Positions 13,201-39,064 of a DNA stretch of 64,000 nucleotides are shown one piece after another (position 1 is the first letter of the stretch; the number at the start of each line of letters is the position of its first letter). Source of the DNA: an uncultured virus (IMG/VR IMGVR_UViG_3300035696_000033). Taxonomy: Duplodnaviria > Heunggongvirae > Uroviricota > Caudoviricetes. The DNA is taken from the IMG/VR virus record IMGVR_UViG_3300035696_000033, one strand, 5' to 3'. Below the pieces are notes generated by a model, which saw nothing but the letters and a program-made list of their open reading frames with translations, was not told where the DNA came from and did no database searches. The position numbers and the translations under genes were made by a program.

Positions 13201-13213
13201 ACTTATTCCCTGA
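10199..13213 (+). CDS. Putative tail fibre/receptor-binding protein
   Basis: Gly/Ser/Thr-rich; repeated GGSGY(K)xGDVLT and DSNGNxQ...W...T.DGGVTW motifs; lower-GC central segment. Confidence 0.6.
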   Translation: MAVAPGNKIAQPDMAALAQVANIKTSAIFNVSPLYLDGSGNPYGHKEFSNVAVIGGGGGYKRGDVLTLGYGSQYEVAMISSAGAVIGIRVINNGAGQYNDNSPAISGGSGSGCVLSYGWAQVGPTMPYSFPDFILNSGVVTSIFMVSGGSGYKAGDVLTTDLSGLAVAVNTVDGSGKILTYTASGWTATTIPADIAAMNASGGSGSGAVFGGYFTLNKNPDWLTELNRLREGVAAVVGTGGDFIHGNFTAAQTYCSGPWPKSGFTSNAYDANSSAQAIFYEDTGSPVTITYSSSCTMGNGGTNCYSYGLSYWGCQGTNIWGGGITGTIDYFGFQGITQIEYRVIIKSPPGATLSGTFAFNATKVNGTTNYGFNGTDFYYGDVPTLTVDSNLGTFTPVLTGQGYQYQCTIGSVIPDGEYYIRVTGGYISHCAPGVSYVYASLGPLDAQYNGEIQSAYGEMDSASATYAQLTETIWSDPCSTLWNYCVVGQGINDVDPSSTGLSFSGTFSTISFGPGTSAPGIDSTKNVLVIPFPNLSADPFLGRFGVYLKTQNVITAPAQPVYSNFPRHLLPGMIGPITLESAGTQPVFGGIEYFAGTFSATISQPVSGYWIGTTPMVSSLNPTTAGQMPWNNTIYGQDGGAQNPMLTGHAVGERYETSSYNQSLPTEQQPDPPSWVPYDNPNGVQTAIYYAVGNVIVDSNGNWQTAIVGGNGGEVVNPAWATVEGQTTKTGNVIWKCTRVMQTSNVWLPNTVKTLGYAVKDSNGNTQVVTSAGTSGGTAPAWNTKCGGKTVDGGVTWTMRSPIVSAPRRMNVTPRYPVVWYSETVAALKTPVASTDMTIWGAGSQWQTVNNFNMSSTGWQTSNAAKGWFIYSVSINRIQQFPQNISGDGTVIGAGDGSVGAGDGGVGADGGATADTTGISVTIGCIRNGSFVAFGTYLTGQTIQVLWPIFTSDPLVYQCSERVEIQAVAIASGGAGVTRRTDIAGGPVCAAHFLDTFNLLQLIP

Positions 13214-13214
13214 T

Positions 13215-14921
13215 ATGAAAACAAAACTCGCAATCATCCTCATCGCGGCGTTCTCGGTATTAACCGGCCACGCTCAATTTCAACTGGTGGACACGACAAC
13301 GGCCCACGTCGTCGGAGGGCAGATCATCTATGGCGATCCGCTGCCAACGGCATTTGCAAAGGTGAACAGCAACTTCACTTACTGCGCCGCGCAACTCGCG
13401 TTTTTGAACACGGAATGCGCGAACATTGTCGGGCTTCAGGCAGGGCTTCAGGCAACGAACGCGGTGTTCTCAAACAACTTCGTCAGCGTCATCAACATGG
13501 TGACAAACTTGAATGGGAAATGGATTCAAGGCGGCACAATAAACAGCAACTCGCTGGACAGCGGGACGATGGCATGGCTGAACAGCCACAGCATCTCCGG
13601 CAGCGGTGGCGGCGGCGATGGTTCTGGCGAGATGGATTTTGACGGCGGGGCGATCATCAGCGATGGCAATGGAGACATTTGGGCAAATGCGATTGTTGTT
13701 CCATCCATATGGGACAGCCAAAACCTGACAGGCAGCGCCGGCCAGGTGGCCACGGCGAATGGCGACAGAACGTGGAGTTGGGAAGCGCCAAGCGGCGGGG
13801 GTGCCGCGACCATCGTCTTCACCAACACAATCACCGGGGCGCCCGGCACGATGGCCATCGTCACAAATGTTGGAAACAATGTGTCGGCAGTTCTTCAACT
13901 CACCATCCCCGCCGGCGCGCCCGGTGCGCCCGGCACAAACACTGTCACGGTCTATAACTTGAGCAACGCGTGGCTTGGTTGCCGGCTGTTACCGACCTAC
14001 ACGACCAACTATGCGATGTGGAACGCTTCGAATTTTCTCGCCCGCGTGCCGGGATTTTATAGAGGACGGGCTTCCGGCGGCGACGATGGCGGAAATCCGC
14101 CGGAGTCCATTCCGATTTCATTTGTTGGGAGCTTCACGGGCACCAACAACTGGTTCGTGATCACCAATGGCTTCCAGACGACGAACACCATTTCTGTTGC
14201 GCTCATCACCAACGGGGCTTCCATGAGAGGGGGGACCATTGTTGATCCCGGCAGCGCCACACTTTACAACGTTGACCATTGGGAACTGGTTGGTGTCACC
14301 AACTACGGGTTCGCCGAGCATTACCAGTTCGACACGCCTGTAAATCCAAATGATGCGGCGACGAAGGGTTATTGTGACGGCCTGTATGCCAACGCCTTCG
14401 ACTCCAACTTTTCCAGCTACACCAACAATGGCGTCACCTACACCGTTTATTCCTACCAAAACGCAGTGACGTTTCAGATCGCCAACCAGACGGTGAACAT
14501 TCCGCACAGCTTTGCGATTGACGGGACGGGCACGAACATCCTGTTTGGCCTCACGCTGGCCAGCATGACGAATGGCTGCACGCTGCAATACTCGACGAAT
14601 CTTGCGCAGGTCGCCGGCTGGATGACGTTCACCAACTACACCTCTACCACGAACGCGGGCGTCGTGACGTTCACAATCCCCATGAACCGGTCCCTGCCAT
14701 TGATGCTGTTTCGCGCCATCGCCAGCGCCACCAGCATCCCATCGTTTCTTGTTCCGCTTGGCGTGCCGGAGATCGCCTTTGCGACGAACACGATCACGCA
14801 TTCAACCAATTCGACCTATGGCTACGGCGCCGGCCTGATGACGTGCGACACGAATTATGTTTACGTCAGCGTGGGGACGAACGCCTGGTGTCGGCTGGCG
14901 ATCCCGACGAACACCTGGTGA
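13215..14921 (+). CDS. Fibre-like protein with Sec signal peptide
   Basis: MKTKLAIILIAAFSVLTGHA-Q leader; PVNPNDAATKGYCD and C-terminal DTNYVYVSVGTNAWCR fibre motifs; many N-x-T/S sequons. Confidence 0.65.
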   Translation: MKTKLAIILIAAFSVLTGHAQFQLVDTTTAHVVGGQIIYGDPLPTAFAKVNSNFTYCAAQLAFLNTECANIVGLQAGLQATNAVFSNNFVSVINMVTNLNGKWIQGGTINSNSLDSGTMAWLNSHSISGSGGGGDGSGEMDFDGGAIISDGNGDIWANAIVVPSIWDSQNLTGSAGQVATANGDRTWSWEAPSGGGAATIVFTNTITGAPGTMAIVTNVGNNVSAVLQLTIPAGAPGAPGTNTVTVYNLSNAWLGCRLLPTYTTNYAMWNASNFLARVPGFYRGRASGGDDGGNPPESIPISFVGSFTGTNNWFVITNGFQTTNTISVALITNGASMRGGTIVDPGSATLYNVDHWELVGVTNYGFAEHYQFDTPVNPNDAATKGYCDGLYANAFDSNFSSYTNNGVTYTVYSYQNAVTFQIANQTVNIPHSFAIDGTGTNILFGLTLASMTNGCTLQYSTNLAQVAGWMTFTNYTSTTNAGVVTFTIPMNRSLPLMLFRAIASATSIPSFLVPLGVPEIAFATNTITHSTNSTYGYGAGLMTCDTNYVYVSVGTNAWCRLAIPTNTW

Positions 14922-14989
14922 CTAGAATTTCCTAGAAATTGTGCTTGCATTTTACGGGGGATGCGCCAGAATGATTCACATATCCAAGG
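14922..14989 (+). promoter_or_regulatory. Sigma70-like promoter, class B copy 1
   Basis: TTTCCTAGAA, TTGCAT-N16-CAGAAT, then CATATCCAAGG; the same elements recur at 24790-24861. Confidence 0.5.
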
Positions 14990-15020
14990 AGCGTGGCAGC
15001 ACTGTAACCATTTGCCGCCC

Positions 15021-16319
15021 ATGTCAGACTCCAAACCGATGCGTGTCCTTGCGCTTTGTGATTCCCCCGCCGTCCGTCCCGGCACCGCCCCCACCGGGTT
15101 CGCCCGCGTCGCCCGCAACCTGTTCGCCCAATGGCCGGAGGACGTTGAGATAGACATCTGGGCGCTCCACTTCGACGGTTGGGGCTACCGCGACCTCCTT
15201 GCGGAGGGCCACCAGTGGACATTGTTCCCCGGCGGCAACCGGGACTGGAACACGCCCGCCCGGCTCAACGCCCTTTTGAAGGTATTGTCCTCCGGCCGCT
15301 ACACCCACGTCTGGATGCTGGCGGACGCGGACGCGCTGTGCGTTGGCAACGGCGAGCGGAGTTTTCCGAACCAATTGCGGGCCTGCTGCAAAAAGCACGG
15401 CATCAAATCGCTGCTTTATTTCCCGATTGACTGCGATCATCAGGAGTTTGCGTGGATGGAAATGATCAAGGCGGTGGACGCGGCCGTGACGTTCACGGAA
15501 TACGGCGCGAGCGTGGTGAGAGAAACGCTGTCGCAAAGCCTGTTCCCGATCCACGTGCTGCCGCACGGGCTGGACGCGCACTTTGTCCCGGTGGAAAATG
15601 AGGGGCAGAAGGCGGAATGCAGAAAACAAATCATCCTTGAAAGTGGAAGGCCGTTCGCCGGAGAAAAAGACTTCCTGCTGCTGAATGTGAACAAGAACGA
15701 GTGGCGCAAGGACCCGCTGCGCTCCCTTGAAATTTTGAAGGGTCTGGTGGAGCGCGGGCTGCCGGCCAAGATGGTTTTCAGGATGTCCGCGACGAGCGTC
15801 ACGGACGGAATAAACATTCCGCGGGCGGCGGCGCAGCTCGGCCTGGAGGATGGCGTGCACTACGTCCTGCTCGACGCCGTGCCGGAACAACACCTGCCCA
15901 AGCTTTACCAGGCGTGCGACCTGTATATCACCACCACGCTGGGCGAAGGCTGGGGGCTTGGCATCACGGAGGCGCTCGGATGCGGGGTGCCGGTGGCGAT
16001 GCCAATGCACACGAGCTGTGGTGAAATTGGCGAAAACATTTTGACAGAGACAGAGAAGGCCGCGGGGGGGCCGCGCACCTTCAGTCCACTTGCATGGGTT
16101 GCTCCAATCGTTTGGCTGGAGAAAGAAGGGGGACAAGTCTGTGGCAATGACACGCGGCTGCGCTGTCGCGTGGACCTGTTGAAGGCGATCCGGGATGTGG
16201 AGAAGTTCTGGCGCGCCGCATCCGGAGCCCCGTGCGCGCCGGTTCGCCTGCCGCCGGAAATCCGCGAGTGGCTTTCGTGGGAGCGCATCGCCAAGGAATT
16301 TTTGAAACTGATGAAATAA
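15021..16319 (+). CDS. GT-B (GT4-like) glycosyltransferase
   Basis: DSP..TGFARV N-terminus, LPHGLD, NKNEWRK, YQACDLYITTTLGEGWGLGITEALGCGVP. Confidence 0.9.
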   Translation: MSDSKPMRVLALCDSPAVRPGTAPTGFARVARNLFAQWPEDVEIDIWALHFDGWGYRDLLAEGHQWTLFPGGNRDWNTPARLNALLKVLSSGRYTHVWMLADADALCVGNGERSFPNQLRACCKKHGIKSLLYFPIDCDHQEFAWMEMIKAVDAAVTFTEYGASVVRETLSQSLFPIHVLPHGLDAHFVPVENEGQKAECRKQIILESGRPFAGEKDFLLLNVNKNEWRKDPLRSLEILKGLVERGLPAKMVFRMSATSVTDGINIPRAAAQLGLEDGVHYVLLDAVPEQHLPKLYQACDLYITTTLGEGWGLGITEALGCGVPVAMPMHTSCGEIGENILTETEKAAGGPRTFSPLAWVAPIVWLEKEGGQVCGNDTRLRCRVDLLKAIRDVEKFWRAASGAPCAPVRLPPEIREWLSWERIAKEFLKLMK

Positions 16320-16337
16320 CATGAACCCGATAATAAC

Positions 16338-17132
16338 ATGAACCCAATTCCCGTCCTCGGCATCCCGCACTACAACCGGCCCGACCTGCTGCTGCGCTGC
16401 ATCCGGAGCATTGATCACCCCGTCCGCAACCTGGTTATCGTGGCAAATGGCCTGCCGTCCGAAACGCCGCCGGATTTTATCGTGCGATCATCCGCTTACG
16501 ATGGCGTGGAAAACGTGAGGGTCATTAATCACCCGAACTCCGGCGTTGCGGGCTCGTGGAATGAAATCATCAAACTGTTCCCCGCGCCGTGGTGGATGAT
16601 CGCCAACAACGACATTGAGTTCGCGCCGGGGGATCTGGGGAAAATGGCGACAGCCGCCGAGCATAATCTGGAACGGCGGTGTTTGCGTTTTACCCTCGTT
16701 TCAAACCCGGACAGTGAGGTCGAGCCTGCGGGCGCGATCTACGGCAACCACGGAGCGAGCTGGTTCGCCATCACCGCGCACGGCGTGGAGAAGGTGGGAC
16801 TGTTCGATGAAAACATCTACCCCGCCTACCTGGAAGACTGCGACTGGAGTTATCGCGCCGACCTGATGGGTGTCCGGCGCCTTACGCTGGTGGGGGATGT
16901 TCGCGCGAAACACGGCGATGACAAGTGCCTTGGATCTTCAACCATCATGTCGGATCCGGCACTGCGGGAGAAGAACCGGCGCACGCACGGCGGGAACTTT
17001 TATTACTACCGGAGCAAGTGGGGCGGCGTCAACGGGCAGGAAGTCTTCAGGACGCCTTTCGACGATCCCGGATGGCCGGTGTGGGCGTGGAAATTCGATC
17101 CGGCGTTCCGGGCAAAACAGCAATGGTGCTAA
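16338..17132 (+). CDS. GT-A (GT2-like) glycosyltransferase
   Basis: IPHYNRPDLL, N.GVAGSWN, NNDIEF, VGLFDENIYPAYLEDCD. Confidence 0.9.
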   Translation: MNPIPVLGIPHYNRPDLLLRCIRSIDHPVRNLVIVANGLPSETPPDFIVRSSAYDGVENVRVINHPNSGVAGSWNEIIKLFPAPWWMIANNDIEFAPGDLGKMATAAEHNLERRCLRFTLVSNPDSEVEPAGAIYGNHGASWFAITAHGVEKVGLFDENIYPAYLEDCDWSYRADLMGVRRLTLVGDVRAKHGDDKCLGSSTIMSDPALREKNRRTHGGNFYYYRSKWGGVNGQEVFRTPFDDPGWPVWAWKFDPAFRAKQQWC

Positions 17133-17136
17133 AACC

Positions 17137-17928
17137 ATGATCCCGCGCATCAAAATAGTCTGCTTCTTTTACAACGAGGAAACGCTGGCCGAATTTTTTA
17201 TCCGGCATTACCGCTGGGCCGACCGGATTCACGCCGTTTTAAGCCGGTCAACCGACGGGACGCGGGCGGTTTTATCCCGCGCCCCGAATGTCGTCATCGA
17301 GGACTTTGAGTTTCCCGGCGGCCGCATGGACGATTTTTTGAAGAGGGACAAGGTGAACAGCCTCCTGCTGGAGCCGTCGGAGTTTGACTGGATCATCATT
17401 GTGGACGCCGACGAATTCATCTGGCCGTCCGTGCGCGCCGATGAATTGAGCGCGCGCGCCGCCGGCCTGACGGTCCGGGAACACCTGGCGTCCGTGCCGG
17501 CGAACGACACGGTGCTGCGCGCCCGGATGTGGAATGTTTTCCGGCACGCGACGGAAGGGGATCTGGACCCGAACAATGAGCCGGTGGTTTTGCAGCGCCG
17601 CCACGGCGACGTCGACCTAAACTCGACCGGCAATGCGCAGTATCAAAAGCCGATTGTGCTGCGCACAAACCTTGGGTTTCAGCTTGTGCCCGGCAACCAC
17701 GGGTTGCTGCCGAACCCCAACACGCGGCTATCGTTCCGCACGTTCGACGGCGCTCACTGGCAGAATGCGGATCCCTCGTTTTGCATCACGCGGCGCTGCC
17801 GCGACCGGCGCGACCGGCAAAGCGCGGCGAACCTGAAATTCGGCCTTGGCAGCCAGCACCATCATGTCACCGAGGCGGAGGCGCTGGAGTTGTGCCGCGC
17901 GCATTTGAACGACCCGCAATGTTTTTAG
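17137..17928 (+). CDS. GT2-like glycosyltransferase
   Basis: FYNEETL..FIRHY, STDGT, WIIIVDADEF. Confidence 0.85.
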   Translation: MIPRIKIVCFFYNEETLAEFFIRHYRWADRIHAVLSRSTDGTRAVLSRAPNVVIEDFEFPGGRMDDFLKRDKVNSLLLEPSEFDWIIIVDADEFIWPSVRADELSARAAGLTVREHLASVPANDTVLRARMWNVFRHATEGDLDPNNEPVVLQRRHGDVDLNSTGNAQYQKPIVLRTNLGFQLVPGNHGLLPNPNTRLSFRTFDGAHWQNADPSFCITRRCRDRRDRQSAANLKFGLGSQHHHVTEAEALELCRAHLNDPQCF

Positions 17929-18191
17929 GACAAAAAGCTCCCAGACGCCACGGTGACGCCTGCTGAGCGCAACCAAAAGCCACCCGCGAACTGCGACTAT
18001 GAATAACCCAAACCTTCTCGGATTACTGACAGCGCCAACGCGGGTTGGCTCCGGCGACTGCATATGGGAATGAACCTGCAACCTCGAAACGACGAAGAAG
18101 GTGAAACACTTCGTTGCACGTTTCGGCGCTGATGACATCGCCATCATTTACGCCCTTGAACTGCGGGACGAAACCACAACTCGTAAAATTT

Positions 18192-18656
18192 ATGGAACAA
18201 AAAATAACTCAAGATGGAGCGCGGGGCGAACCGCAGGTTCGCTCCGGCGCGGTGTTGGGCTGCTGCGTGGAAATCCAAAAACTGCTCGGAAAAGAAAAAG
18301 ACTTCCACGAGCAAACACGCGGCAGTAGCGGGCGTGGTGTGAAATGGGAAGAAGGCTTCATCGAAGGAATAAAGCACTGCCTGCTAGTGGTCTCAATGCA
18401 AAATAACAATCTAAAAACGCAGCAACCGCCCGCGTCAGCGGCGGGTGCAGCGGCTTATTTGGCGCTGACCGACGCGGAGAAAATCCAAAAGACAATCGAA
18501 CTTTTGGAATATCTGCATGCCGAATGCCTCGTGCCCGACATGGCGCATGATGCCGTCGGAACGTGCCGCATCTGCCGACTCCTAAAAGAACTGAAAGCAC
18601 CCGAACGCTTTGAGCAGCCCAACGCTCGTGCTGACCTGCGCGGCGACAAACCGTGA
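18192..18656 (+). CDS. Cassette-borne hypothetical protein
   Basis: Payload bounded by GTTGGGCTGCT (18254) and AGCAGCCCAAC (18623). Confidence 0.6.
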   Translation: MEQKITQDGARGEPQVRSGAVLGCCVEIQKLLGKEKDFHEQTRGSSGRGVKWEEGFIEGIKHCLLVVSMQNNNLKTQQPPASAAGAAAYLALTDAEKIQKTIELLEYLHAECLVPDMAHDAVGTCRICRLLKELKAPERFEQPNARADLRGDKP

Positions 18657-18926
18657 ACTCACTATTGCATCAAGACCAAACTGCCGGGCGTATCCCGTCA
18701 GGCTTCCGAAGGTTGCGATTCAGCCGGCGCACGGCGCGGTCGGCGCGAGAAGAAAGCTTTCGAGGCTGGCTGGATAGCTGGTGCCGAACGCATGGGGGAC
18801 TGCCTCAACGGCGGATACCGTCCTCAAACCGTGAAACAATCTGGAGCCTCAACGAAATAAACTGCGCGTCCAACCCGCATTGGCTCCATGCGGTAGTTGG
18901 GCGGCACAATCGAAAGACAAACAACA

Positions 18927-19334
18927 ATGAAAGAAAATGGTGAACCAAACTACGCGGGCTGGATCGTCGCATCAATCGTGGCAATCGGCGTCGTAATCTT
19001 CGGCGCAATGTGGGCGTATCCGCAATACAACATCTATGCGAGCCGCGCACTCGGCCAAGCAATGCTGGCACACGCGCAGTCCGCAAAAGAAGTGGCTGTG
19101 GCCGAAGCGAAGGCCAAAATGGAATCGGCGGAACTGCTGGCGCAAGCGGAAGTAATCCGCGCTGGTGGCGTCGCAAAGGCAAATCAGATAATCGGCGAAT
19201 CGCTGAAAAATAATGAGGCATATCTTCGCTACCTCTGGATTAACGACGTGGCCGCGCAAGGCACAGACAAAACCGTGGTGTATGTGCCAACCGAAGCCAA
19301 CCTGCCAATCCTTGAAGCCACCCGAAACAAATAA
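18927..19334 (+). CDS. Cassette-borne membrane protein (SPFH/Band-7-like coiled coil)
   Basis: One TM helix then an AEA-rich helix ending NEAYLRYLWI..VYVPTEANLPILEA; bounded by a 13-bp IR (18896/19374). Confidence 0.7.
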   Translation: MKENGEPNYAGWIVASIVAIGVVIFGAMWAYPQYNIYASRALGQAMLAHAQSAKEVAVAEAKAKMESAELLAQAEVIRAGGVAKANQIIGESLKNNEAYLRYLWINDVAAQGTDKTVVYVPTEANLPILEATRNK

Positions 19335-19388
19335 AACTCACGCGGCACAGTGCGCGTGCGCTGTGCCGCCCAACGAAAGCAAAAACCT

Positions 19389-20006
19389 ATGAAATTATCA
19401 GGACATCAACTAGACGGATTCAATGCAGCATTACGCGCAGGTGACGACGCGGGAGCACACCAAGAATTACAAATCGCGTGCGCCAAAGCTGATGGCGCAG
19501 CTCCGGTTCGCGTGCAGCCGGTTGTTCTGCCGCATCGTTGCCCGCACGGAAATCTCCCATACGGGAACTGGGCGAACACCGTCCCACCAATGACACGCTG
19601 GCAAATATCGTGTCCATGCTGCATGTGGTATGAGCAGGCTGAAAACGAAACGTGCGCAGTGAAGATGTGGAATGAATACCTGCGGCAGAACGCGGGAGCC
19701 AAGCTGCGTGCTCCCAGCGACACTGATAAAACTGAAGGCGTAATCACGTCGCCTCCAGCAACTTGTTCGGCGAAAACGTATCCTCACAATCCAAGCCACC
19801 CAATCGGAACATGCACTAAATGCGGCGGTGAGATGGTCTATAACGTGCCACGCATGGGGCCAAATGGCGGCTTCGTCCACAAAGCAACAGGACGCCTAGT
19901 GTGTGGAACTGGCCGATGCGATGCGTGTGGTGGAGACCGCGACAATGCAGACTGCCCTGAATTGGCAGAAATCATGCGCCGCTATTCGCCGAACGCTACC
20001 CGATGA
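19389..20006 (+). CDS. Chimeric ORF reading through attC; two Cys-rich Zn-ribbon modules (first is Lar-like)
   Basis: CPHG..ISCPCC..AVKMWN and CTKCGG..CDACGG modules on separate cassettes joined in frame. Confidence 0.55.
   Translation: MKLSGHQLDGFNAALRAGDDAGAHQELQIACAKADGAAPVRVQPVVLPHRCPHGNLPYGNWANTVPPMTRWQISCPCCMWYEQAENETCAVKMWNEYLRQNAGAKLRAPSDTDKTEGVITSPPATCSAKTYPHNPSHPIGTCTKCGGEMVYNVPRMGPNGGFVHKATGRLVCGTGRCDACGGDRDNADCPELAEIMRRYSPNATR
19685..19771 (-). repeat. attC site
   Basis: GCAGAAC...GCCTCCAGCAACTT-GTTCGGC. Confidence 0.7.
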
Positions 20007-20087
20007 GCCACGCCGCACCAATAACCGTGAACCGCGAAGCGGAACTGAACGCGACAATAGGCGTTGGCTCCGGCGGGTTTGTTAGGT
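19988..20087 (-). repeat. attC site
   Basis: GCCGAAC..TGAGCCACGCC...GGCGTTGGCTCCGGCGGGTTT-GTTAGGT. Confidence 0.85.
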
Positions 20088-20392
20088 GTCCGTCCACGAC
20101 ACTCGCACTTCCCGGTCTGGAATCAGAAAGCGTCCGGCTCGACGACATCATCCTGACGCCGCTCGACGTGGCGCGTGACGTGGTGAAACACTTCGCGCCG
20201 TCTGGCCGCATCCTCGACCCGTGCCGTGGAAATGGTGCGTTCGCCGATCTGATGCCAGGATGTGAATGGTGCGAAATCCGGCAAGGCCGCGACTTCTACG
20301 CATGGCGCGAGCCGGTGGACTGGATCGTTAGCAACCTGCCGAAGGAAGTCCGCGAATACCGAATACGGCGAAAGGAACGAAATGAAAAGTGA
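20003..20392 (+). pseudogene. Truncated DNA adenine methyltransferase-like cassette
   Basis: LTPLDVA, ILDPCRGNGAF (SAM-binding), GRDFY, VDWIVSN then LP instead of NPP(Y/F/W), followed by an early end; own attC end missing. Confidence 0.65.
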
Positions 20393-20696
20393 TGTTGAAC
20401 GTTCTGGGACACCGGCTGTTGCGGTGCAGCGCTTTGTTAGCCGCCCGCACCCGTGGAAATCCCAATTTTCCAACCAGCAAAAACTCAAAGAAGCCAGGCG
20501 GTGCGCAAATCTGCGCCGGATGAAAAAGTATCGAGATGACGGCAAAGAATACTTCCGGCTCACCGAAAAGACATGGCACGAAACGCACCCAAACGGCGCT
20601 GGAACAAACAACCCACGATTTACAGAGCGCGCCATAAAAGCAAATGCTGCCAAGCGTCAGGCGACTAACGATGGCGCTGAGGCGCGTGACCTATGA
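20382..20696 (+). CDS. Cassette-borne basic hypothetical protein
   Basis: AAAGGA before ATG; payload bounded by GTTAGCCGC (20436) and GCGACTAAC (20669). Confidence 0.55.
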   Translation: MKSDVERSGTPAVAVQRFVSRPHPWKSQFSNQQKLKEARRCANLRRMKKYRDDGKEYFRLTEKTWHETHPNGAGTNNPRFTERAIKANAAKRQATNDGAEARDL

Positions 20697-20944
20697 CAAC
20701 CGCAAACGAAAACTCTCCCGGCAAACCTGAAGGCGTAATCACGTCAGCTTCGGCGCGGGTGTCCGTGCGCCTAAAGGCATCCGACTGGGAAACCCTTGTC
20801 AACTTCGTGCAGGGTGACATAAGCAACATGGACATCGCCGACCCAAACCGCACCGACACCGAGAAAATCCTAAACGTAATCCGGCTCGCTCTGGCTAAAG
20901 CGCCGAACGAAAAAGCTGAGCGGCCCGCGACCAAGACGCCATGA
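20693..20944 (+). CDS. Cassette-borne hypothetical protein
   Basis: ATGA-coupled at both ends inside attC sites. Confidence 0.55.
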   Translation: MTTANENSPGKPEGVITSASARVSVRLKASDWETLVNFVQGDISNMDIADPNRTDTEKILNVIRLALAKAPNEKAERPATKTP

Positions 20945-20992
20945 ATAACACTGAAAACGCCAACGCGGGTTCGCTCCGGCGACTTGTTGTGC
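20902..20992 (-). repeat. attC site
   Basis: GCCGAAC GAAAAAGCTGAGCGGCCCGCG...CGCGGGTTCGCTCCGGCGACTT GTTGTGC. Confidence 0.85.
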
Positions 20993-21195
20993 CGCTGGTC
21001 GAAATTCTCGAAAAAGACATCGCCCGGCTGAAAACGCATCTCAAAATGTGGGAGGCCACAGGTAACCCGATGGTCATGCCAAGCGACGGCCAGTGTCGAA
21101 TACTCATAGACGATTTAGAAATAGTCGTCGCCGCGCTGAAGCGGCACAACGCGGGAGCTGACGCACCCGCGACCAACGATAAACGAACTCTATGA
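20941..21195 (+). CDS. Cassette-borne hypothetical protein
   Basis: Starts inside attC 20902-20992 and stops inside attC 21144-21252. Confidence 0.6.
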   Translation: MNNTENANAGSLRRLVVPLVEILEKDIARLKTHLKMWEATGNPMVMPSDGQCRILIDDLEIVVAALKRHNAGADAPATNDKRTL

Positions 21196-21252
21196 AACCC
21201 TCTCGAACAACTGACAGCGCCAACGCGGGTTGCGTCCGGCGACTTGTTAGGC
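21144..21252 (-). repeat. attC site
   Basis: GCACAAC..GCTGACGCACCCGCG...CGCGGGTTGCGTCCGGCGACTT GTTAGGC. Confidence 0.85.
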
Positions 21253-21311
21253 CACTGGTCGAAATAACAAAAAGTCTGGTCCGGCAAAAAACGTAATGAA
21301 ATCAACATAAA

Positions 21312-21530
21312 ATGAGCAAACAACCATCAAAACAGGCCAAATCCGGTCCGGGTATCAAAACCCGCAAACAAAAGCAAAAACGCGACGAACTAACATCGGC
21401 ATGTATCGGACTGCTAGTTGGCAACTTCCATTGCGATGCCTGCCACCTCAAGCGACGAATCTTCGATGAACTGTTCAAGCGAAAAATAATGGACGTAAAT
21501 CAGCACGGCCAAATGGTCGAAGTGGCCTAA
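21312..21530 (+). CDS. Cassette-borne hypothetical protein
   Basis: Stop codon is the TAA of GCCTAAC; CDAC motif. Confidence 0.55.
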   Translation: MSKQPSKQAKSGPGIKTRKQKQKRDELTSACIGLLVGNFHCDACHLKRRIFDELFKRKIMDVNQHGQMVEVA

Positions 21531-21711
21531 CGCCCGCATGAGCGAACCCCCAACCCGCGATGCCCAATAACCAACAACTCTACGCGCAAACCTGCGGTGG
21601 CAATGGGGGTTCGCTCCATGACGGCACGCCAGTCATGGGCGCGTGCAAGAAGCATCAAGACGAACTCGCAACAAAACTCAAATGGCAAATACAGCCACAA
21701 ACGCCGATTTG

Positions 21712-21819
21712 GCACAACGACCGGAGCTGAGACGCCCCGGAACTACGATATGAAAAAACCAAAATCCAAAGCAAAAACTGCAAGGCGTAATCCGGGTCGT
21801 CTCCAGCGACTTGTTAGGC
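21712..21819 (-). repeat. attC site
   Basis: GCACAAC..GCTGAGACGCCCCGGA...TCCGGGTCGTCTCCAGCGACTT GTTAGGC. Confidence 0.85.
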
Positions 21820-22094
21820 GACCCGTGCGTGAATACACCGTTGAAATGTGGCGCACGATGGGAGTGATGCGCCATAAATGTGAGGCGGCATCGCGGGACG
21901 AAGCCATCGAAATAATGCTGACTCATCTGCCGCCTGACTACCGAATAGTGCTCGTGACTACCGCAGCACAAGCCAAACGGAAACGCGGCCACACATATAG
22001 TGGGCGGTGCGTGGTCTGCAAAAAACACATCTATGATGAAACCGGATGCGAACATCCAAAGCCTCACCACTATGCCTGCGGTGAAGTCGCCTAA
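21750..22094 (+). CDS. Cassette-borne Cys/His-rich hypothetical protein
   Basis: ATG inside attC; CVVCKKH..C motif; stop in GCCTAAC. Confidence 0.55.
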   Translation: MKKPKSKAKTARRNPGRLQRLVRRPVREYTVEMWRTMGVMRHKCEAASRDEAIEIMLTHLPPDYRIVLVTTAAQAKRKRGHTYSGRCVVCKKHIYDETGCEHPKPHHYACGEVA

Positions 22095-22187
22095 CGTATG
22101 AAGCTGAGCCACCGCCGACTCTGGACGCTGACCGCGATAGCGGAACTGACCGCGCTAACGGCGGTTGGCTCCGGCGACTTGTTAGGC
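22089..22187 (-). repeat. attC site
   Basis: GCCTAAC..GCTGAGCCACCGCCG...CGGCGGTTGGCTCCGGCGACTT GTTAGGC. Confidence 0.9.
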
Positions 22188-22214
22188 AGCAACTCGTGAA
22201 CTGACATAAAAAAT

Positions 22215-22460
22215 ATGATAACTGAACAAACAACCTATCAGCCCGAAATCTGGTCTGTCAAAAAGGACGACATCTACGCCGCAATCACGGCGATAGAATC
22301 CGGCATCTGCTACGCGCAAGAATGTCTCGCCACTCACGACCAATCTCTCGGACGAACCACCCGCAAAAACAAAAGCTCTGCGGAGCGCATGGAATCTGAC
22401 CTGCGGCAAATGTCGCTCGCTCATGCCGCGCTACGCTTGCTGCCTAACGAAAAAAGCTGA
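22215..22460 (+). CDS. Cassette-borne hypothetical protein
   Basis: Ends LLPNEKS*, stop is the TGA of the attC GCTGAG box. Confidence 0.6.
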   Translation: MITEQTTYQPEIWSVKKDDIYAAITAIESGICYAQECLATHDQSLGRTTRKNKSSAERMESDLRQMSLAHAALRLLPNEKS

Positions 22461-22552
22461 GCCACCGGCAACCCGTGGCAAACGAACTTATGAAAACCCC
22501 TGCGAATAAAAAGAAAACTGCAATGCCGGTTGGCTCCGGCGCTTGGTTAGGC
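22442..22552 (-). repeat. attC site
   Basis: GCCTAAC GAAAAAAGCTGAGCCACCGGCA...TGCCGGTTGGCTCCGGCGCTTG GTTAGGC. Confidence 0.9.
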
Positions 22553-22771
22553 TGCGTCGAACCAAGACTGACTCCAATCTTCACAGAACTCCGCAAGCTC
22601 CACCACGAATGCGAGGCGGCAAATGAAGGCCGAATCGCTTGGGAAATCTCGCAAGGCATCCGCGCCTTGGATGAAGCTGTATATCTCGCCAAGCTGTATA
22701 TCAGCGGCAAGCCACTACCAACGCTGGCGTCAATGCGGGGCATACTCAAGCGGCCTAACGAAAAAAGCTGA
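22490..22771 (+). CDS. Cassette-borne hypothetical protein
   Basis: ATG within attC; ends KRPNEKS* in the next attC. Confidence 0.55.
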   Translation: MKTPANKKKTAMPVGSGAWLGCVEPRLTPIFTELRKLHHECEAANEGRIAWEISQGIRALDEAVYLAKLYISGKPLPTLASMRGILKRPNEKS

Positions 22772-22851
22772 GCCACCGCCGACCTGCGACGTGAACCGCG
22801 ATAGCGGAACTGCAAGCGCCAACGGCGGTTGGCTCCGGCGACTTGTTAGGC
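22753..22851 (-). repeat. attC site
   Basis: GCCTAAC GAAAAAAGCTGAGCCACCGCCG...CGGCGGTTGGCTCCGGCGACTT GTTAGGC; close to the 22089-22187 copy. Confidence 0.9.
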
Positions 22852-22879
22852 GTCTGAAACGGAAAACTGAAATAAAAAT

Positions 22880-23092
22880 ATGGCATATCAAAAGAAAGCT
22901 CCAATGAAGCGCGAAATCTTTTTCTCGCAACGAATGGACATGGCTCGCCGCGCCGAAGCGTGGTGCGTCGAACGTGGCGCAGCACTCTCATCTGGCAACA
23001 TCGTGACGGCTCTTGTCAGCATGGGAATCATCAAAAAATATACGGCGGCAAAGACGCCTAACATTGTAATAGGCAACCAATCCGCGAAATGA
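22880..23092 (+). CDS. Hypothetical protein of the attI-proximal cassette
   Basis: Payload bounded by GTTAGGCGTCT (22845) and AGACGCCTAAC (23062). Confidence 0.55.
   Translation: MAYQKKAPMKREIFFSQRMDMARRAEAWCVERGAALSSGNIVTALVSMGIIKKYTAAKTPNIVIGNQSAK
23056..23074 (-). other. attI-like recombination site
   Basis: - strand GCCTATT-ACAAT-GTTAGGC resembles the attI1 core CCCTAAA-ACAAA-GTTRRRY and terminates the array. Confidence 0.65.
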
Positions 23093-23403
23093 AAGACGCA
23101 AGCTATTGGCAGAGAAGGAAATCCGCAAGGCAGCGTTGGAGTTTCAATGCTTGTCGGAAGCGTGAACGGAACAGGGTTGAGCGTGCCAACGCACCATTGC
23201 CGGACGAACGAATCCACCACGCTTCCAAGCCGCGCCGATCTCGCCCTGATTTGAAGGTGATTCTTGAACGGAGGGACGGGATGCGGATTCAGTTCTCGTT
23301 GCATAATTTTTACGGAAAACTTGTCGGCCAAACCGTAAACATGAGTCCGAAACAGTTTGGCCGTCGGCTTGGAGAAATTTTCAACCTTTGGTGCATGGCA
23401 TGA
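23089..23403 (+). CDS. Basic hypothetical protein
   Basis: ATGA-coupled on both sides. Confidence 0.55.
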   Translation: MKDASYWQRRKSARQRWSFNACRKRERNRVERANAPLPDERIHHASKPRRSRPDLKVILERRDGMRIQFSLHNFYGKLVGQTVNMSPKQFGRRLGEIFNLWCMA

Positions 23404-24053
23404 AAATCAGCGCATTAATTCCAAGCCGAGGAAACCCGAAAGAATTGCGGGACACAATATCGAACCTGTTTTCCACGGCACGGAGCCCAGAATTGCTGGA
23501 GGTGGTTGTGCGGTTGGATGAAGACGACCCGACATTTCTGGACTACGAAAGATGCTTCCGTCCGGGTGTGCACTGGATCATGGGTCCGCGACTGGGATAT
23601 GCGCGGATTCACGAGTATTACGAGGAGTGTTACAAGCTGTCCATCGGCGACCTGATCCTGGCTTACAACGACGACGTGGAAATGATGACGACCGGATGGG
23701 ACGAGGCCTACCGCACGGCGCTGGCCCCGGTGAAGTTTGGAGTGGCATCGGCGGCGGTGGACGAGGGCAACGGCACGAATTACGCCTGGGCGATGCCGAT
23801 GGTCAAGCGCGAGTTGTGTGAGCGGATTGGCCGGTTCTGCGCGGGGGTGGAAACCTGCGACCGGATATTTGACGCCTACGCGCGGTTAAGCGGCCGCGGC
23901 GCAACGGCCCGAGTGAAGATGATCCACCGGTGGCATCCGCCGGCACCGGGCGGCGAGCGCGATAAAATCTACAACCACGCGACAAGCCACTGGGGGGAGA
24001 TGACGGCAAAGTGGGATGCGTCCGCGCGGGAAATGATGGAGATGACGAAGTGA
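23400..24053 (+). CDS. GT2-like glycosyltransferase
   Basis: MKISALIPSRG, VRLDEDD, GDLILAYNDD. Confidence 0.85.
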   Translation: MKISALIPSRGNPKELRDTISNLFSTARSPELLEVVVRLDEDDPTFLDYERCFRPGVHWIMGPRLGYARIHEYYEECYKLSIGDLILAYNDDVEMMTTGWDEAYRTALAPVKFGVASAAVDEGNGTNYAWAMPMVKRELCERIGRFCAGVETCDRIFDAYARLSGRGATARVKMIHRWHPPAPGGERDKIYNHATSHWGEMTAKWDASAREMMEMTK

Positions 24054-24268
24054 CGCTCAAGCTGACCTTTCTTGGCTCAACGACACTGGCGCGACGCTAC
24101 CGGCACTGTAACGGCATCATCCAATGGGTTCCGCGGTCAGTGTGCCCCAAAAACTTCAAGCACGGCGACAAGGCGGGCGACCTGCACGAGGTCACCATTG
24201 AGGACTGGTGGCTCAAGGCAAACCCGTTTGAAAAGCCGGCGTCCAAGGGACAGCAAAACCTGCTATGA
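24050..24268 (+). CDS. Small hypothetical protein
   Basis: GTGA overlap; WVPRS..VTIEDWWL pattern common in small phage proteins. Confidence 0.55.
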   Translation: MTLKLTFLGSTTLARRYRHCNGIIQWVPRSVCPKNFKHGDKAGDLHEVTIEDWWLKANPFEKPASKGQQNLL

Positions 24269-24504
24269 CCGCCACCTACAATGCCGAACGCCAGAAAATT
24301 TACAACCGGCGCGCGCGTGAAAAGAAGGCAATGATCAAACGCATCAGCCGCGAGCTTGACGCGGCGATTGAGGCGCTGGAAAGGCTGCCCAAATGTTGCG
24401 CCTGTCAGTCCCCTGGCGCGCAGTGCGACCACACGACGCAGCGGAAACTATACACCATTGAAGCGGCCATCGCCCGGTCGCAACTGGCGGAGGCGGAATA
24501 TTGA
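24265..24504 (+). CDS. Small hypothetical protein
   Basis: ATGA overlap; CCAC..C motif. Confidence 0.5.
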   Translation: MTATYNAERQKIYNRRAREKKAMIKRISRELDAAIEALERLPKCCACQSPGAQCDHTTQRKLYTIEAAIARSQLAEAEY

Positions 24505-24797
24505 CCGCGCCCCGGCAACGCTGGACAAGGATCGGATCATTGAAATCCGATGTCACGCTTCACGGGCGGGGCGCCGTCGGCCGCGGCTGGTGGCTGAACT
24601 GGAGGGGCCGGTGCGACTGGTGCCAGCCGAACGAATTTGAAAACATGGAGAGCGTGGAATGGGCGGTGCGCCGCCGTCTGGCCATCGCCGGGCTGGAGCT
24701 GCTTGCGCTGGCATCCAGGCCGCCCCGCAACGAATATCAGGGCCTTTGGGCGCTGGTGAAGAGATGTAAAAAATATGCGCCCCGGTCATTTTCCTAG
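24501..24797 (+). CDS. Small hypothetical protein
   Basis: TTGA overlap with the upstream ORF. Confidence 0.4.
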   Translation: MTAPRQRWTRIGSLKSDVTLHGRGAVGRGWWLNWRGRCDWCQPNEFENMESVEWAVRRRLAIAGLELLALASRPPRNEYQGLWALVKRCKKYAPRSFS

Positions 24798-24861
24798 AAG
24801 TATCTAAAAAAATAACTTGCACACGGTGACGCGATAGGTTAAGAATTGGGCATATCCAAGG
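24790..24861 (+). promoter_or_regulatory. Sigma70-like promoter, class B copy 2
   Basis: TTTCCTAGAA, TTGCAC-N18-AAGAAT, CATATCCAAGG. Confidence 0.5.
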
Positions 24862-24878
24862 CGGCGCGTGGGGTGTGC

Positions 24879-25673
24879 ATGTCCGAACTTTGCGTTCCAT
24901 TGGATTATGAACAGCTGCCAGAACTCTGGCGGTTGCGCAAGGCGCTTGCCGCCCGGTCTGCCGGCGCACCCAATTCCCAGCCTTCCCCCAAGTCCATCGA
25001 GGCGGCGGCAAACTTCCTGTTTGCGCGCCTCTTCGTGACGCTCGGATATCTCGCCAAGTCCACCAACCAGCCCGGGGTGCTGACCGAAACGGGGGGCCAG
25101 CAGCTGCGCGCCTCGCTGGAACCGCTGTTCGGGGACGATTGCGAACCGGTGGCGCTGCTGGCGGAGTGCGGGTTGTTGCAAAAATCGGAAATCGGGAAAT
25201 CGGAAGGCGGAAAAGAATACATCTGTCCCCTGTTCGCCAAGCTGAACCTGCACCTCTCTGGAGACTACAAGCCCGGCCACATCAAGGGGAACGTGAACTC
25301 CCGCCTGTCGGTGGCGATGAAGAACATCGTGGGCGAATCGGCGCAGCAGATGAGGCTGCTGCCGGAGGGGGTCTTCCAGAAGAATGACGGCACGCCCATG
25401 ACGGACATGGAGCGGCAGTCCGCCGTGGTGATCATCCGCACGCTCGACCGCTGCCTGATGAGGCCGTCGCGCGGCAAGTTTGAGTTCAGCGCGGGGCTGA
25501 TGGCGACGGCGCACGACATCGCGACAAGGCACGACCGGGAAAAGCTCAAGTCGTTTTATTTCTGGCTGGCCAACAACTGCGAGCGGCCGGAGATCGCCAG
25601 GGTCCCGGATGAAATCCTGCGAGACTTCGACCATTACTTCGCGCTGGCCCAAGCCGGGGCCCCCGCCCTTTAG
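24879..25673 (+). CDS. Hypothetical protein
   Basis: Long ORF with host-like codon usage downstream of a promoter-like site. Confidence 0.7.
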   Translation: MSELCVPLDYEQLPELWRLRKALAARSAGAPNSQPSPKSIEAAANFLFARLFVTLGYLAKSTNQPGVLTETGGQQLRASLEPLFGDDCEPVALLAECGLLQKSEIGKSEGGKEYICPLFAKLNLHLSGDYKPGHIKGNVNSRLSVAMKNIVGESAQQMRLLPEGVFQKNDGTPMTDMERQSAVVIIRTLDRCLMRPSRGKFEFSAGLMATAHDIATRHDREKLKSFYFWLANNCERPEIARVPDEILRDFDHYFALAQAGAPAL

Positions 25674-25687
25674 CACGAATAACACGC

Positions 25688-27049
25688 ATGCCCCGGGCCA
25701 AAAAGAACACTCCCGCCCAACCGCCGCTGGCGGCCCCCCTGCCCGTTCCCGCGCCGGTCTTTGAGCCGCCGCGGATGGTGCGCTACATCGCGGGTGAGGG
25801 CGACGATGCGGAGGACTGGCAGGCGGAGCGGTTTGACCTTTTGGCGGTGGAATTTGACATCCACGTCCGGTCGGTTGCGGAGGCGGGGGCGGCGCTGGCA
25901 AAATTCCACGCGGTGGCCAGCGAATGTCCCCGCCAGTGGCAGCTGGCGCGCCGGCTGTTTGGCGTGGCCCCGCTGATCCAGTCGCCAGACACCCATCCTG
26001 ACGACATGGAAGTCTGGTCGCGCGAGCGCCTGGCAGCCGATGGATATGAGGTGGATGCGGAGCTGGCGGCGCTGCGGACGATCTGGCGCGATCACCTGAA
26101 CCGGGAAGAACAATCGAAGATGGCGGAGACGGTTTCGACGAAATTATCCGGCGCCGCCCCGTCCGAGGGGGACCTGCCGCTGGACGACAGGTTGTTGGAA
26201 ACATTCCAATTCTCGGAGCGCATTTTCAAAATAAAAGTCTGGGATCCCACCGCGGGCACAGACGGCGCCGGGGCGGAGGTGCCGCGCAGCGACGCCGAAA
26301 ACCGGGTGGAGAGGGACTGGTTTGCGGGCCGTGTCCAGGACTGGCAGAAGATGCTGAAAGACCCCATGGGCGCGCCGGTGGCCCGGTCCGCGCTGATGAA
26401 CGACCTCTACCTGCGGCGGATGGAATATGAAATGGCCGTCTCGCCCTCCAACCGCCGCGAGAAGCTGATGGAACAGCAGCAGCGGCTCACGCGCGATTAC
26501 AACACGAGCATCGAGAAGCTGCAGGAAATGTTCCCCGACATTGCGGTTGCGGGGCGCATTGCATACCGGGCCACGATCAGCGACATCACGGTCGGGCACC
26601 GCGACTATTATGCGCACGGGGACCGCCGACTGGTGGACAAGCTGTTCACCGCGGCGGAAATTGAACTCCAGCTCCGCTCTTCGCTGCAACTGCCGGCGCA
26701 GCACCGGTTCAGCCTTGGCCTCGCCGTTGTGGAGAACCAGCACGGCATGTATGACCCGGAATTTCGCTCCCAGTTCAAGCCGCGTGTTTTGAAAATGATA
26801 GACGCGATGACGAGGGCGGCGCGTGAAGCGGTGCGCGAACTCCAGAACGAGCCGGTGGTGGACCTGGAACGGGGCACCGCCCCGGATGAGCCGGACCAGT
26901 TTGAAGATTTCAACGACGAGCAATGCCGCGAGCCGTTGAAGGACGGAAAAACCTGCGGCCGCTGGCATCCGAACGGGAAAGCGTGCCCCAATGCGAAGAA
27001 CCACCAGGGCGGCCCCATCCCGGCGGCCCCAGATGAAACACGGACATGA
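25688..27049 (+). CDS. Hypothetical protein (packaging region; C-terminal Cys/His motif)
   Basis: 453-aa ORF, helical, C..CGRWH..C. Confidence 0.7.
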   Translation: MPRAKKNTPAQPPLAAPLPVPAPVFEPPRMVRYIAGEGDDAEDWQAERFDLLAVEFDIHVRSVAEAGAALAKFHAVASECPRQWQLARRLFGVAPLIQSPDTHPDDMEVWSRERLAADGYEVDAELAALRTIWRDHLNREEQSKMAETVSTKLSGAAPSEGDLPLDDRLLETFQFSERIFKIKVWDPTAGTDGAGAEVPRSDAENRVERDWFAGRVQDWQKMLKDPMGAPVARSALMNDLYLRRMEYEMAVSPSNRREKLMEQQQRLTRDYNTSIEKLQEMFPDIAVAGRIAYRATISDITVGHRDYYAHGDRRLVDKLFTAAEIELQLRSSLQLPAQHRFSLGLAVVENQHGMYDPEFRSQFKPRVLKMIDAMTRAAREAVRELQNEPVVDLERGTAPDEPDQFEDFNDEQCREPLKDGKTCGRWHPNGKACPNAKNHQGGPIPAAPDETRT

Positions 27050-27561
27050 AAAACCCAATTGCCCAAAAACTTTACGAAACCTATTGCGCCGCCGTTGGCG
27101 GCAAGGCGCCCAATGGCGACCCGCTGCCGCCGTGGGAAGAGCTTGCCTCCGACGAGTTTGCCTCCGACGAGAAGAAGAGGCTCCAGAGCGGCGCGTGGCT
27201 GGCACTGGAACAACAGGTTGAAAACCAGATTGACGCCGCGTTGAAAGCGTTCCGCGCGATGGAGGCGATGGAACTGACAAAGCTGTCGCTTGCGCCGGGC
27301 GACATCGTGCTGGTGACGGTGCCGAAGGAAGCGCCACTCACGCCGCAATTGCAAACTTCGCTCGCCGGCACGTTCACCAATTTGCTCCATGACAAGGGCG
27401 TGCGTGTGCTGATCAAGAACGCGGACATCGCGCTGGAGGTGCTTGCCGACCTGCTGACGGCGGACGACCTGGCGAAGATGGCGCGCCGCATGGAACAGAA
27501 GAAACTTGCGGCGGAAACGCCGCCCGAACAGAAGAAGAACCCCGGATTTGAATCGAATTAA
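27046..27561 (+). CDS. Hypothetical protein
   Basis: ATGA overlap; YETYCAAVGGKAPNGDPLPPWEEL phage-type motif. Confidence 0.65.
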   Translation: MKNPIAQKLYETYCAAVGGKAPNGDPLPPWEELASDEFASDEKKRLQSGAWLALEQQVENQIDAALKAFRAMEAMELTKLSLAPGDIVLVTVPKEAPLTPQLQTSLAGTFTNLLHDKGVRVLIKNADIALEVLADLLTADDLAKMARRMEQKKLAAETPPEQKKNPGFESN

Positions 27562-27574
27562 ACCAAGAAAAATC

Positions 27575-28363
27575 ATGAATCTAATACCCAAGGAAAATCT
27601 TTTCAACGTGGCGGGAACGCCGCTGGCCAATGTCAAATTCCAGTTTGTGACCATGACGCCGGCGCTGGCCGCCGAGCCGCTCAAGGCGAACAAGAAAAAC
27701 CGGCGCGTGAAACAGGACACGGTGGACGCCTACGCGCGCGACATGCGCAATGGCGAGTGGGTGACAAACCACCAGGGCGGCGCGCTTTCGGAGGAGGGGA
27801 ACATTCTGGATTTTCAGCACCGGCTGCTGGCCGTGGTGCAGAGCGGCTGCACCATTGTGATGCTGGTTTCCACGGGCTGGCCGCAGAAGATGCCCAAGCA
27901 AAAGGTGTCGTTGATGGATTCGGTGGACATGGGCTGTCCGCGCAACATCCGAGACCAGATGGAAATGCTGCACGGTTTTGAGGACGCGCGGGTGGTGGTG
28001 AACGTTTCCGGGGGCGTGGCGGGGCTGGTGACCGGCATGGACCGCGTGCGGCGGAAGTCGCCGGCGGCGGTCCTGACGGTGGCGGCGGCGTATGCGAACG
28101 AATTCCGGTGGCTTGAGAAAAACATCGCCACGACCAACGGAATCAAATCGGCAACCATGAGCGCGGTGCTGGGACTGGCGGCGTGGCCGGACGCGACCAG
28201 GGCATTTTATGAACAGCTCAAAACCGGCACGAACCTGACGGCCACCAGCCCCGTGCTGCATCTGCGGCGCGCGAACCAATGGCTGGCGGAATGGATGGCG
28301 CGCGGGTGGATCAGCAACGCGGGATTCCGGCAATACATCCGCACGGCAAAATTTGGGAAATGA
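27575..28363 (+). CDS. ParB/DGQHR-like domain protein
   Basis: MTPALA..NKKNRRV..YARDMRNGEW..NHQG..ILDFQHRLLAV. Confidence 0.7.
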   Translation: MNLIPKENLFNVAGTPLANVKFQFVTMTPALAAEPLKANKKNRRVKQDTVDAYARDMRNGEWVTNHQGGALSEEGNILDFQHRLLAVVQSGCTIVMLVSTGWPQKMPKQKVSLMDSVDMGCPRNIRDQMEMLHGFEDARVVVNVSGGVAGLVTGMDRVRRKSPAAVLTVAAAYANEFRWLEKNIATTNGIKSATMSAVLGLAAWPDATRAFYEQLKTGTNLTATSPVLHLRRANQWLAEWMARGWISNAGFRQYIRTAKFGK

Positions 28364-38989: not shown

Positions 38990-39064
38990 CGCAGGGTGGC
39001 GCAGCGGCAGCGCATCCGGCCCATAACCGGAAGGTTGTTGGTTCAAATCCAACCCCCGCAACCA
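38990..39064 (+). tRNA. tRNA-Met(CAT), initiator-like, atypical
   Basis: Cloverleaf: D stem GCGC/GCGC, anticodon stem TCCGG/CCGGA with loop CCCATAA, T arm GTTGG-TTCAAAT-CCAAC, encoded CCA, C1:A72 mismatch. Confidence 0.9.

Follow-up and report, generated by a model that had tools for sequence, protein, structure and literature searches.

The window analysed here, a stretch of 64,000 nucleotides from the uncultured virus record IMGVR_UViG_3300035696_000033 (Caudoviricetes), represents 64 kb out of a ~72.6-kb contig, ~8.6 kb of which lies outside the window. A scan of 60 open reading frames (ORFs) revealed tailed-phage markers, namely a tail protein (PF10145), a holin-like match, and an SNF2 helicase. 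Positions 17969–23092 are an integron-type array within this tailed phage, with about 16 attC sites or remnants of the Verrucomicrobiota type and a conserved attI at 23056 (counted by reading), between which lie the cassette ORFs; the genes flanking the array are nearly all on the + strand. A host-site profile (nhmmer) gave eight matches in the window, all inside 17979–22851 and in a single orientation, and the left limit of the array reaches 17969. Seven attC sites are complete, six of them found by a structural detector and the seventh (19988) by the profile; the four sites nearest attI are complete, and none left of 19988 is. Nine of the 13 pairs of cassette ends form perfect inverted repeats of 10–13 bp, two further pairs match at 10/12, and two are without R''. 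The site at 22753–22851 is identical to one site in L025 (L and G numbers denote loci and genomes of the comparison). Contigs of run X1, possibly the source, cover the array at ~10x with zero differences; the joints in these contigs derive from repeats and are not counted here as signs of excision. The features of the array are as follows.

17969..18066 (−): decayed attC at the distal array end, with L' partly deleted and R'' lost (nhmmer 25 bits); an intact copy in L248/L346 is 99% identical over 82 nt
18192..18656 (+): cassette ORF of 154 aa, whose start precedes the right-arm remnant 18229–18260 and which enters the next site in the AAC frame; cassette body 18254–18623 bounded by an inverted repeat of 11 bp
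18617..18720 (−): decayed attC with GTGA at 18653 (fold not significant, z +0.86); frame of the downstream ORF uncertain
18826..19374 (+): cassette with a phrog_11227 gene at 18927–19334 (PHROG E 2e-45) and a 13-bp inverted repeat; its attC has its left arm deleted in the window and is intact in G011
19389..20006 (+): ORF made of two small cassettes fused in frame (inverted repeats of 11 and 10 bp), bridged by a decayed attC at 19685–19771
19988..20087 (−): attC (nhmmer 33 bits) with an ATGA stop-start at 20003 within the L' box
20003..20392 (+): DNA methyltransferase (MTase) cassette (phrog_799, E 1.6e-12), which a deletion near 20340 cuts short at the NPP motif
20382..20696 (+): cassette ORF of 104 aa, whose start precedes a right-arm remnant (to 20442)
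20663..20765 (−): attC with a 6-nt spacer, ATGA at 20693, and a decayed R''
20693..20944 (+): cassette ORF of 83 aa
20902..20992 (−): complete phage-type attC with a 6-nt spacer and ATGA at 20941
20941..21195 (+): cassette ORF of 84 aa
21144..21252 (−): complete phage-type attC with a 6-nt spacer; the ATGA at 21192 opens only a 34-codon ORF
21312..21530 (+): cassette ORF of 72 aa with its own start and the R' TAA as its stop
21525..21620 (−): attC with an intact L stem and R'' lost (fold z −3.4)
21560–21730: 56-aa ORF beginning within attC 21525..21620
21712..21819 (−): complete attC with a 7-nt spacer and a loop ATG at 21750 (fold z −2.3)
21750..22094 (+): cassette ORF of 114 aa with the R' TAA as its stop
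22089..22187 (−): host-type 99-nt attC (nhmmer 93 bits; fold z −3.2)
22215..22460 (+): cassette ORF of 81 aa; its homologues have seven other tails past the crossover
22442..22552 (−): complete attC with a 7-nt spacer and a loop ATG at 22490
22490..22771 (+): cassette ORF of 93 aa with the C-terminus PNEKS
22753..22851 (−): host-type 99-nt attC (fold z −3.6)
22880..23092 (+): ORF of the attI-adjacent cassette, probably the newest; it runs through attI and has an ATGA overlap with the platform gene
23056..23092 (−): attI, with the crossover between 23061 and 23062
23089..23403 (+): conserved 104-aa platform gene, occupying the intI position of other phage arrays

Anatomy and polarity of the attC sites

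Read along the + strand, the sites have the order R' box, 6–7 nt, 7-nt L', loop, 8-nt L'', 5 nt, and R'' (box names after PMC9892861 and PMC8946536), a pattern of boxes and spacers that corresponds to the bottom strands in Table S3 of PMC9892861, a source available to us in part. All the hallmarks of attC are present, that is, the R''/L''/L'/R' boxes, the GTTRRRY core, the extra base in L'', and the asymmetric spacers. An earlier note, made from the letters of the DNA alone, had taken the − strand as the attC top strand; indeed, the structural detector, which was built for bottom-strand anatomy and run on both strands, found six sites with + as the bottom strand and none with −. Matches to the integron integrase IntI (TIGR02249) exceeded the cut-off in four of the five host genomes searched, and IntI lies on the attI side of six host arrays (G001, G004, G005), pointing away from them. 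Since the site anatomy and the host IntI positions agree, − is the top strand and attI is to be expected at the right end of the array.

Sites 22753, 22089, and 21712 fold as hairpins (z −3.6, −3.2, and −2.3, respectively), and the L-box stems are retained despite altered sequence. The 24-base repeat arm matched at least 189 stretches of the genome collection, mostly from Verrucomicrobiae and often in long arrays. The host site is 99 nt long in 190 of 219 distinct sites.

Coding strand of the cassettes

The cassette ORFs run antisense to the attC polarity, as had been proposed, and this is borne out by PHROG matches and codon-position bias that were found on the + strand only. Two of 15 + cassette ORFs had a PHROG match at E < 0.001, in comparison with none of 10 minus ORFs at E < 0.05. 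The + ORFs match phrog_11227 (2e-45) and the MTase family phrog_799 (1.6e-12), in agreement with the expectation that the genes are of phage type. Differences between the MTase and its counterpart in L004 are distributed over the three codon positions as 1/1/18, 17 being synonymous and 2 non-synonymous, and substitutions between ORF 22215 and L231 as 16/17/35. The ORFs are therefore not co-oriented with the attC top strand, as those of canonical cassettes would be. No match past the attC part was found between the cassette bodies and the host loci.

This orientation is characteristic of phages, as the earlier note had also supposed. By ORF coverage, 89 phage cassettes (25 loci) and 228 host cassettes (73 loci) were compared, one reverse-strand duplicate site in L242 having been removed before the orientation and frame counts; cassettes open on the bottom strand only and on the top strand only stood at 39:6 in phages and 13:139 in host arrays (p 1e-23, with cassettes that are not independent of each other).

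Starts, stops, and reading frame across the sites

The attC sites also supply starts and stops. As had been stated for these positions, the ATGs at 20693, 20941, 21192, 21750, and 22490 lie in attC loops and that at 20003 in an L' box; the stops at 21530 and 22094 are the R'-box TAA, and those at 22460 and 22771 the L'-box TGA, both proteins ending in PNEKS; (A/G)TGA overlaps are present at 18653, 20003, 20693, 20941, and 21192. Corrections are needed at individual cassettes. The ORF assigned to 21192 has a mere 34 codons, the gene of that cassette starting at 21312. At 18653, the overlap stands, with a doubtful GTG frame: the G011 gene that precedes the shared site has the loop TAA as its stop (18858–18860 of the window), that is, it uses the other frame of the window. 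The ORF from 20003 is the MTase, as called, but is truncated near 20340. The broader claim, that cassettes remain translationally coupled after shuffling, holds for the reading frame and a nearby start, which are kept, and mostly not for strict ATGA coupling. Among 50 phage junctions having a stop and an in-site start, the stop-start distance was −4 to +12 nt at 27. ATGA overlaps are common elsewhere in the same phage, too.

The frame in which an ORF enters the next site is far from free. Of 122 phage sites, counted after removal of those near N or <200 nt from the end of a locus, 93 received an ORF of ≥50 codons, and these ORFs entered in the AAC frame (75), the YAA frame (17, of which 15 stop on TAA), and the third frame (1), so that 90 of the 93 either use the AAC frame or stop on TAA; a control on the bottom strand of host sites gave 55/33/23 of 111 (third-frame difference, p 4e-6). 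In the window, 10 of 12 entries are AAC and 2 are TAA. The AAC frame stops within the loop in 41 of 47 sites with 5–6-nt spacers and at or before L' in 24 of 28 sites with 7-nt spacers; at host-type sites with 7-nt spacers, most genes end on the L' TGA and are not coupled.

These frames suggest how the format may work. If the + strand is cut at AA|C, each cassette would carry its own attC body ahead of its gene, so that the start codon, located within the loop or within an A-rich leader following the site, would belong to that gene, and the last codons and the stop would be lent by whichever site follows. Because AAC is entered as a codon or the gene stops on TAA, any order of cassettes would stay in frame. 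With spacers of 5–6 nt, translation would bypass the L' TGA and end in the loop, close to the following start, and with host-type 7-nt spacers it would mostly halt at L'; attI follows the same frame rule.

Exchange of cassettes at the crossover

The prediction that shuffling preserves the reading frame was upheld by breaks of identity and swaps of tails at the crossover. G011, an unrelated phage, shares with 10000–29900 of the window one 552-nt block and two short site matches; the block (18823–19374, 96% identity) ends at the crossover (AAC 19374). Of nine homologues of ORF 22215, seven part from it at the residue following the crossover Asn and have seven different tails; the same was seen by eye for 14 of 26 longer MTase homologues, the others being without such tails. 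The cassette thus appears to be mobilized whole, with the G|TT crossover as its boundary. Among the other phrog_11227 loci, attC was detected in 0 of 79, which is a lower bound because the detector also missed the intact site in L264. In G011 (L264:415–510, 1368–1980, 2075–2165, and 2873–2920), single attC sites or cassettes and attI-like sites are scattered among the genes and do not form one array. No meaningful match to 22060–22880 was found among INPHARED phages.

attI and the platform gene

The attI that had been placed at the right end is recognizable there by an R' box at 23056 without an L' box after it. Its motif is conserved to the right of AAC and variable to the left in all of 13 loci having the next gene, plus L233; the 13 loci represent 10 distinct contexts, one of which is the window's own, and L352, with 1 difference from the window in 7312 nt, is not independent. 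L348 and L353 have near-identical attI and different first cassettes. This comparison places attI at the array's proximal end. The AAC frame stays open for 10–13 codons in each of the 11 distinct attI variants; it ends −1 to +12 nt from the called platform start in 10 of the 11, and in five variants in ATGA on that start.

The protein encoded beside attI is basic, has 104 residues, and belongs to a group of 20 homologues including itself (19 others). It gave no Pfam or PHROG match, no match in the Atlas (best 0.77) or by fold (best Z 4.4), and no recombinase match. A guess that it has an integrase arm-binding fold found no support, a result that does not show the fold to be new. Thus, the gene next to attI is not intI, and the array is not a complete integron in this respect. 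In three other phage contigs (L004:5330–6253, L243:2928–3860, and L227:4388–5338), a phage IntI starts 30–50 nt after the attI crossover; that of L243 passes the TIGR02249 cut-off (268.7 vs 265), and those of L004 and L227 are just below it. In L004 and L243, IntI reads in the same direction as the cassette genes. The gap between IntI and attI in the three contigs leaves little room for a promoter. A scan for promoters of the Pc type gave 2 promoter-like sites against 2.8 expected by chance; since the genes face attI, a Pc there could not express the cassettes.

Phage-format cassettes in host arrays

Cassettes with the features of the phage format, which according to the earlier note would be silent in a host integron, are also found in host chromosomal arrays. 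Of 228 host cassettes, 40 have an attC whose loop contains an ATG with a frame open through R''; the loop-ATG frame is open across the whole body in 14 of the 40, as compared with 16 of 170 for any frame at standard sites (p 3e-5), and 13 of 15 open loop-ATG frames end in the AAC frame. The enrichment is seen both within G004 (9/23 vs 2/28) and outside it (6/17 vs 14/160). The host cassette L057:9044–9403, in an array flanked by metabolic genes, encodes on the bottom strand a DUF4326 protein whose gene has 102 viral relatives. We read these cassettes, on the strength of their frames and relatives, as probable traffic between phage and host arrays. Most other loop-ATG host cassettes also have a plausible top-strand gene; for the top-strand protein of one such dual-frame cassette, no viral relative was found. 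Further bottom-strand phage-like genes occur in host arrays at L054:138–500 and L043:3159–3386, and cassettes with a loop ATG and an antisense frame of full length opposite a plausible top-strand gene are located in L043, L054–L066 (G004), L010, L044, and L202. In L198:2720–3440 (G001), the first two cassettes past the host attI are near-identical tandem copies with no clear ORF.

Other features of the window

The array is bordered on both sides by glycosyltransferase genes (14961–17928 and 23400–24053). A diverged copy of 18236–18395, joined to an attC, lies on a second X1 contig of the phage's own depth (10.8x), which is possibly a second array outside the window. The SNF2-type helicase ORF (60252–63989, −) contains in-frame simple-repeat stretches, is open at the window end, and lies on the strand opposite to most of the genome. 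A single tRNA gene (38990–39061), the sole Rfam match, is located amid structural genes. Many viral contigs (L002–L008, L210–L256) start or stop within or near their own arrays, as expected if arrays break assemblies.

Discussion

As far as sequence comparison can show, the sites of this array are attC whose polarity towards attI is normal, with the genes on the bottom strand and exchange at the canonical crossover. The array functions as integron cassette arrays do, without being a complete integron; with at least two attC within 3 kb and no neighbouring integron integrase, it is a CALIN (cluster of attC sites lacking an integron integrase) as defined in PMC9892861, a call made with the site profile and the structural detector. 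Its most probable explanation, which we hold with good confidence from these comparisons, is a phage-format array that is run by IntI in trans, grows at attI, and decays distally. Gain of cassettes would take place at attI, where the phage operon has its downstream end, and older cassettes would decay at the opposite end; the recombining IntI would most likely be that of the host, a Verrucomicrobium of the Limisphaerales type. The antisense layout may stem from capture of an attI-intI segment co-oriented with phage transcription, because only bottom-strand genes would then be expressible. The layout may also put the recombinogenic strand on the lagging template: the cumulative GC skew of +3.77 weakly suggests that + is the leading strand, in which case the bottom strand would be on the lagging template, and this position favours folding and excision according to PMC8946536, in the part of that paper available to us.

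Several observations weigh against this explanation or narrow it. No IntI was found in the 64-kb window (best E 0.47), ~8.6 kb of the contig lying outside it, and the left half of the array is decayed. Sites 20902 and 19988 and the decayed sites fold no better than shuffles in their present context. Family matches are lacking for 13 of the 15 cassette + ORFs, and a strict ATGA overlap is present at only 12 of the 50 phage junctions. In the orientation test, ORF length left 44 of 89 phage cassettes (and 76 of 228 host cassettes) ambiguous, and 6 phage cassettes were top-only, although 5 of these 6 had a plausible bottom-strand ORF on inspection; voted by contig, 16 were bottom, 4 top, and 1 tied. 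One viral contig, L254, leans to the top strand (4 of 5 cassettes), and its array may be canonical or host-derived. Moreover, the same MTase body bears many different attC heads, which implies that heads are exchanged or added independently; such head exchange is not accounted for by simple excision and insertion.

Head swaps at the R'' side, the decay of the left half, and the absence of IntI from the window and six other phage records searched would also be expected if the attC sites were now only short homologous linkers by which phage homologous recombination swaps modules, the array being an integron relic. We regard this as unlikely: the shared sequence breaks off at the crossover base itself, with no relationship between the two sequences that follow, and homologous proteins have new tails from the residue after the crossover onward. 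In addition, attI, which has almost no homology to attC, takes different cassettes, and the L-box stems are kept despite sequence change. It is also quite improbable that the same traffic is driven by a phage enzyme, either an IntI encoded in the remaining 8.6 kb or a non-IntI (Xer-like) recombinase. Three other phage contigs do carry IntI beside attI, and the window covers only part of the contig; however, a PF00589 match was present in none of six related phage records, two of which have terminal repeats, the attI-proximal sites are of host type, and the gene after attI has no recombinase match.

A captured host array with its true genes on the minus (top) strand, and plus ORFs that only shadow them, is an explanation largely refuted and hardly credible now. 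Long minus ORFs do span several cassettes, and host arrays contain cassettes open on both strands, but purifying selection and family matches are found on + only, and no cassette body matched the host loci past the attC part.

That phages carry attC clusters is already published (PMC9892861; Qi et al. 2023, seen in part): that work describes phage CALINs, five sites of which were recombined by IntI1 with a preference for the bottom strand. Like the array in the window, they are attC clusters without IntI in phages, with DNA methyltransferase cassettes. The portion of its text available to us makes no mention of genes antisense to attC, of a frame rule, or of an attI in the array of a phage lacking IntI. 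Of the published arrays, TJE1 is canonical and ctTUS972, judged by eye, is antisense, with bottom-strand sites on the coding strand; thus, both formats exist in phages, and the layout of ctTUS972 is not remarked on in that portion of the text. In the published phage CALIN at L258:2070–3720 (MW202573), the coding strand carries bottom-strand attC sites and a purine-rich stretch, and a site may contain an upstream start of the MTase. Our literature search, which left subscription journals largely uncovered, found no paper on antisense cassettes in phages.

The sedentary chromosomal integrons of Verrucomicrobiota (Limisphaerales/subdivision 3) share with the array the 99-nt attC, its polarity relative to attI, and terminal inverted repeats of 10–12 bp (median 11). 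They differ in having their genes on the top strand (139:13) and IntI present; the spacer is 7 nt in 341 of 353 host sites, whereas phage sites with 5, 6, and 7 nt number 29, 45, and 48, and a loop ATG occurs in 64 of 353 host sites versus 92 of 122 phage sites. In class 1 integrons, a frame across the recombination site likewise aids translation of the next gene, namely ORF-11 at attI1 (PMC8876359, in the part available); that frame lies on the top strand and joins attI to the first cassette, whereas those of the window, on the bottom strand, connect successive cassettes and pass through attI to the platform gene. In the inverted-integrase integrons of PMC13323075, again seen in part, intI has the same reading direction as the cassette genes, which is also the case in L004 and L243; in those integrons, however, intI and attC are on the same strand, whereas in the phage arrays the attC polarity is regular and the cassette genes are reversed.

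Collectively, viruses appear to use a bacterial gene-capture system in a format of their own. While integrons are seen as devices of bacteria, and lately as stores of anti-phage genes (10.1101/2024.07.02.601686, in the part accessible to us), phages appear to reorder their own accessory genes, often methyltransferases, via the same sites and probably with the host's integrase. The format keeps a one-directional operon in frame, like phase-matched exons, a comparison that is our own. Surveys that presume co-oriented ORFs will misassign genes in phage arrays, and homology searches with small phage proteins will be led astray by their short heads and tails of attC origin. One gene was found free-standing, as a cassette, and with many attC heads, which provides material for the question of how cassettes originate. 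Tentatively, and with somewhat more doubt than belief, we suggest that this phage group keeps its own cassette pool and a platform (attI and the 104-aa gene, with no integrase), makes cassettes from free-standing phage genes, and trades in both directions with host chromosomal integrons. If so, phages would be both a workshop and a shuttle for integron cassettes, and the question of cassette origin would become testable.

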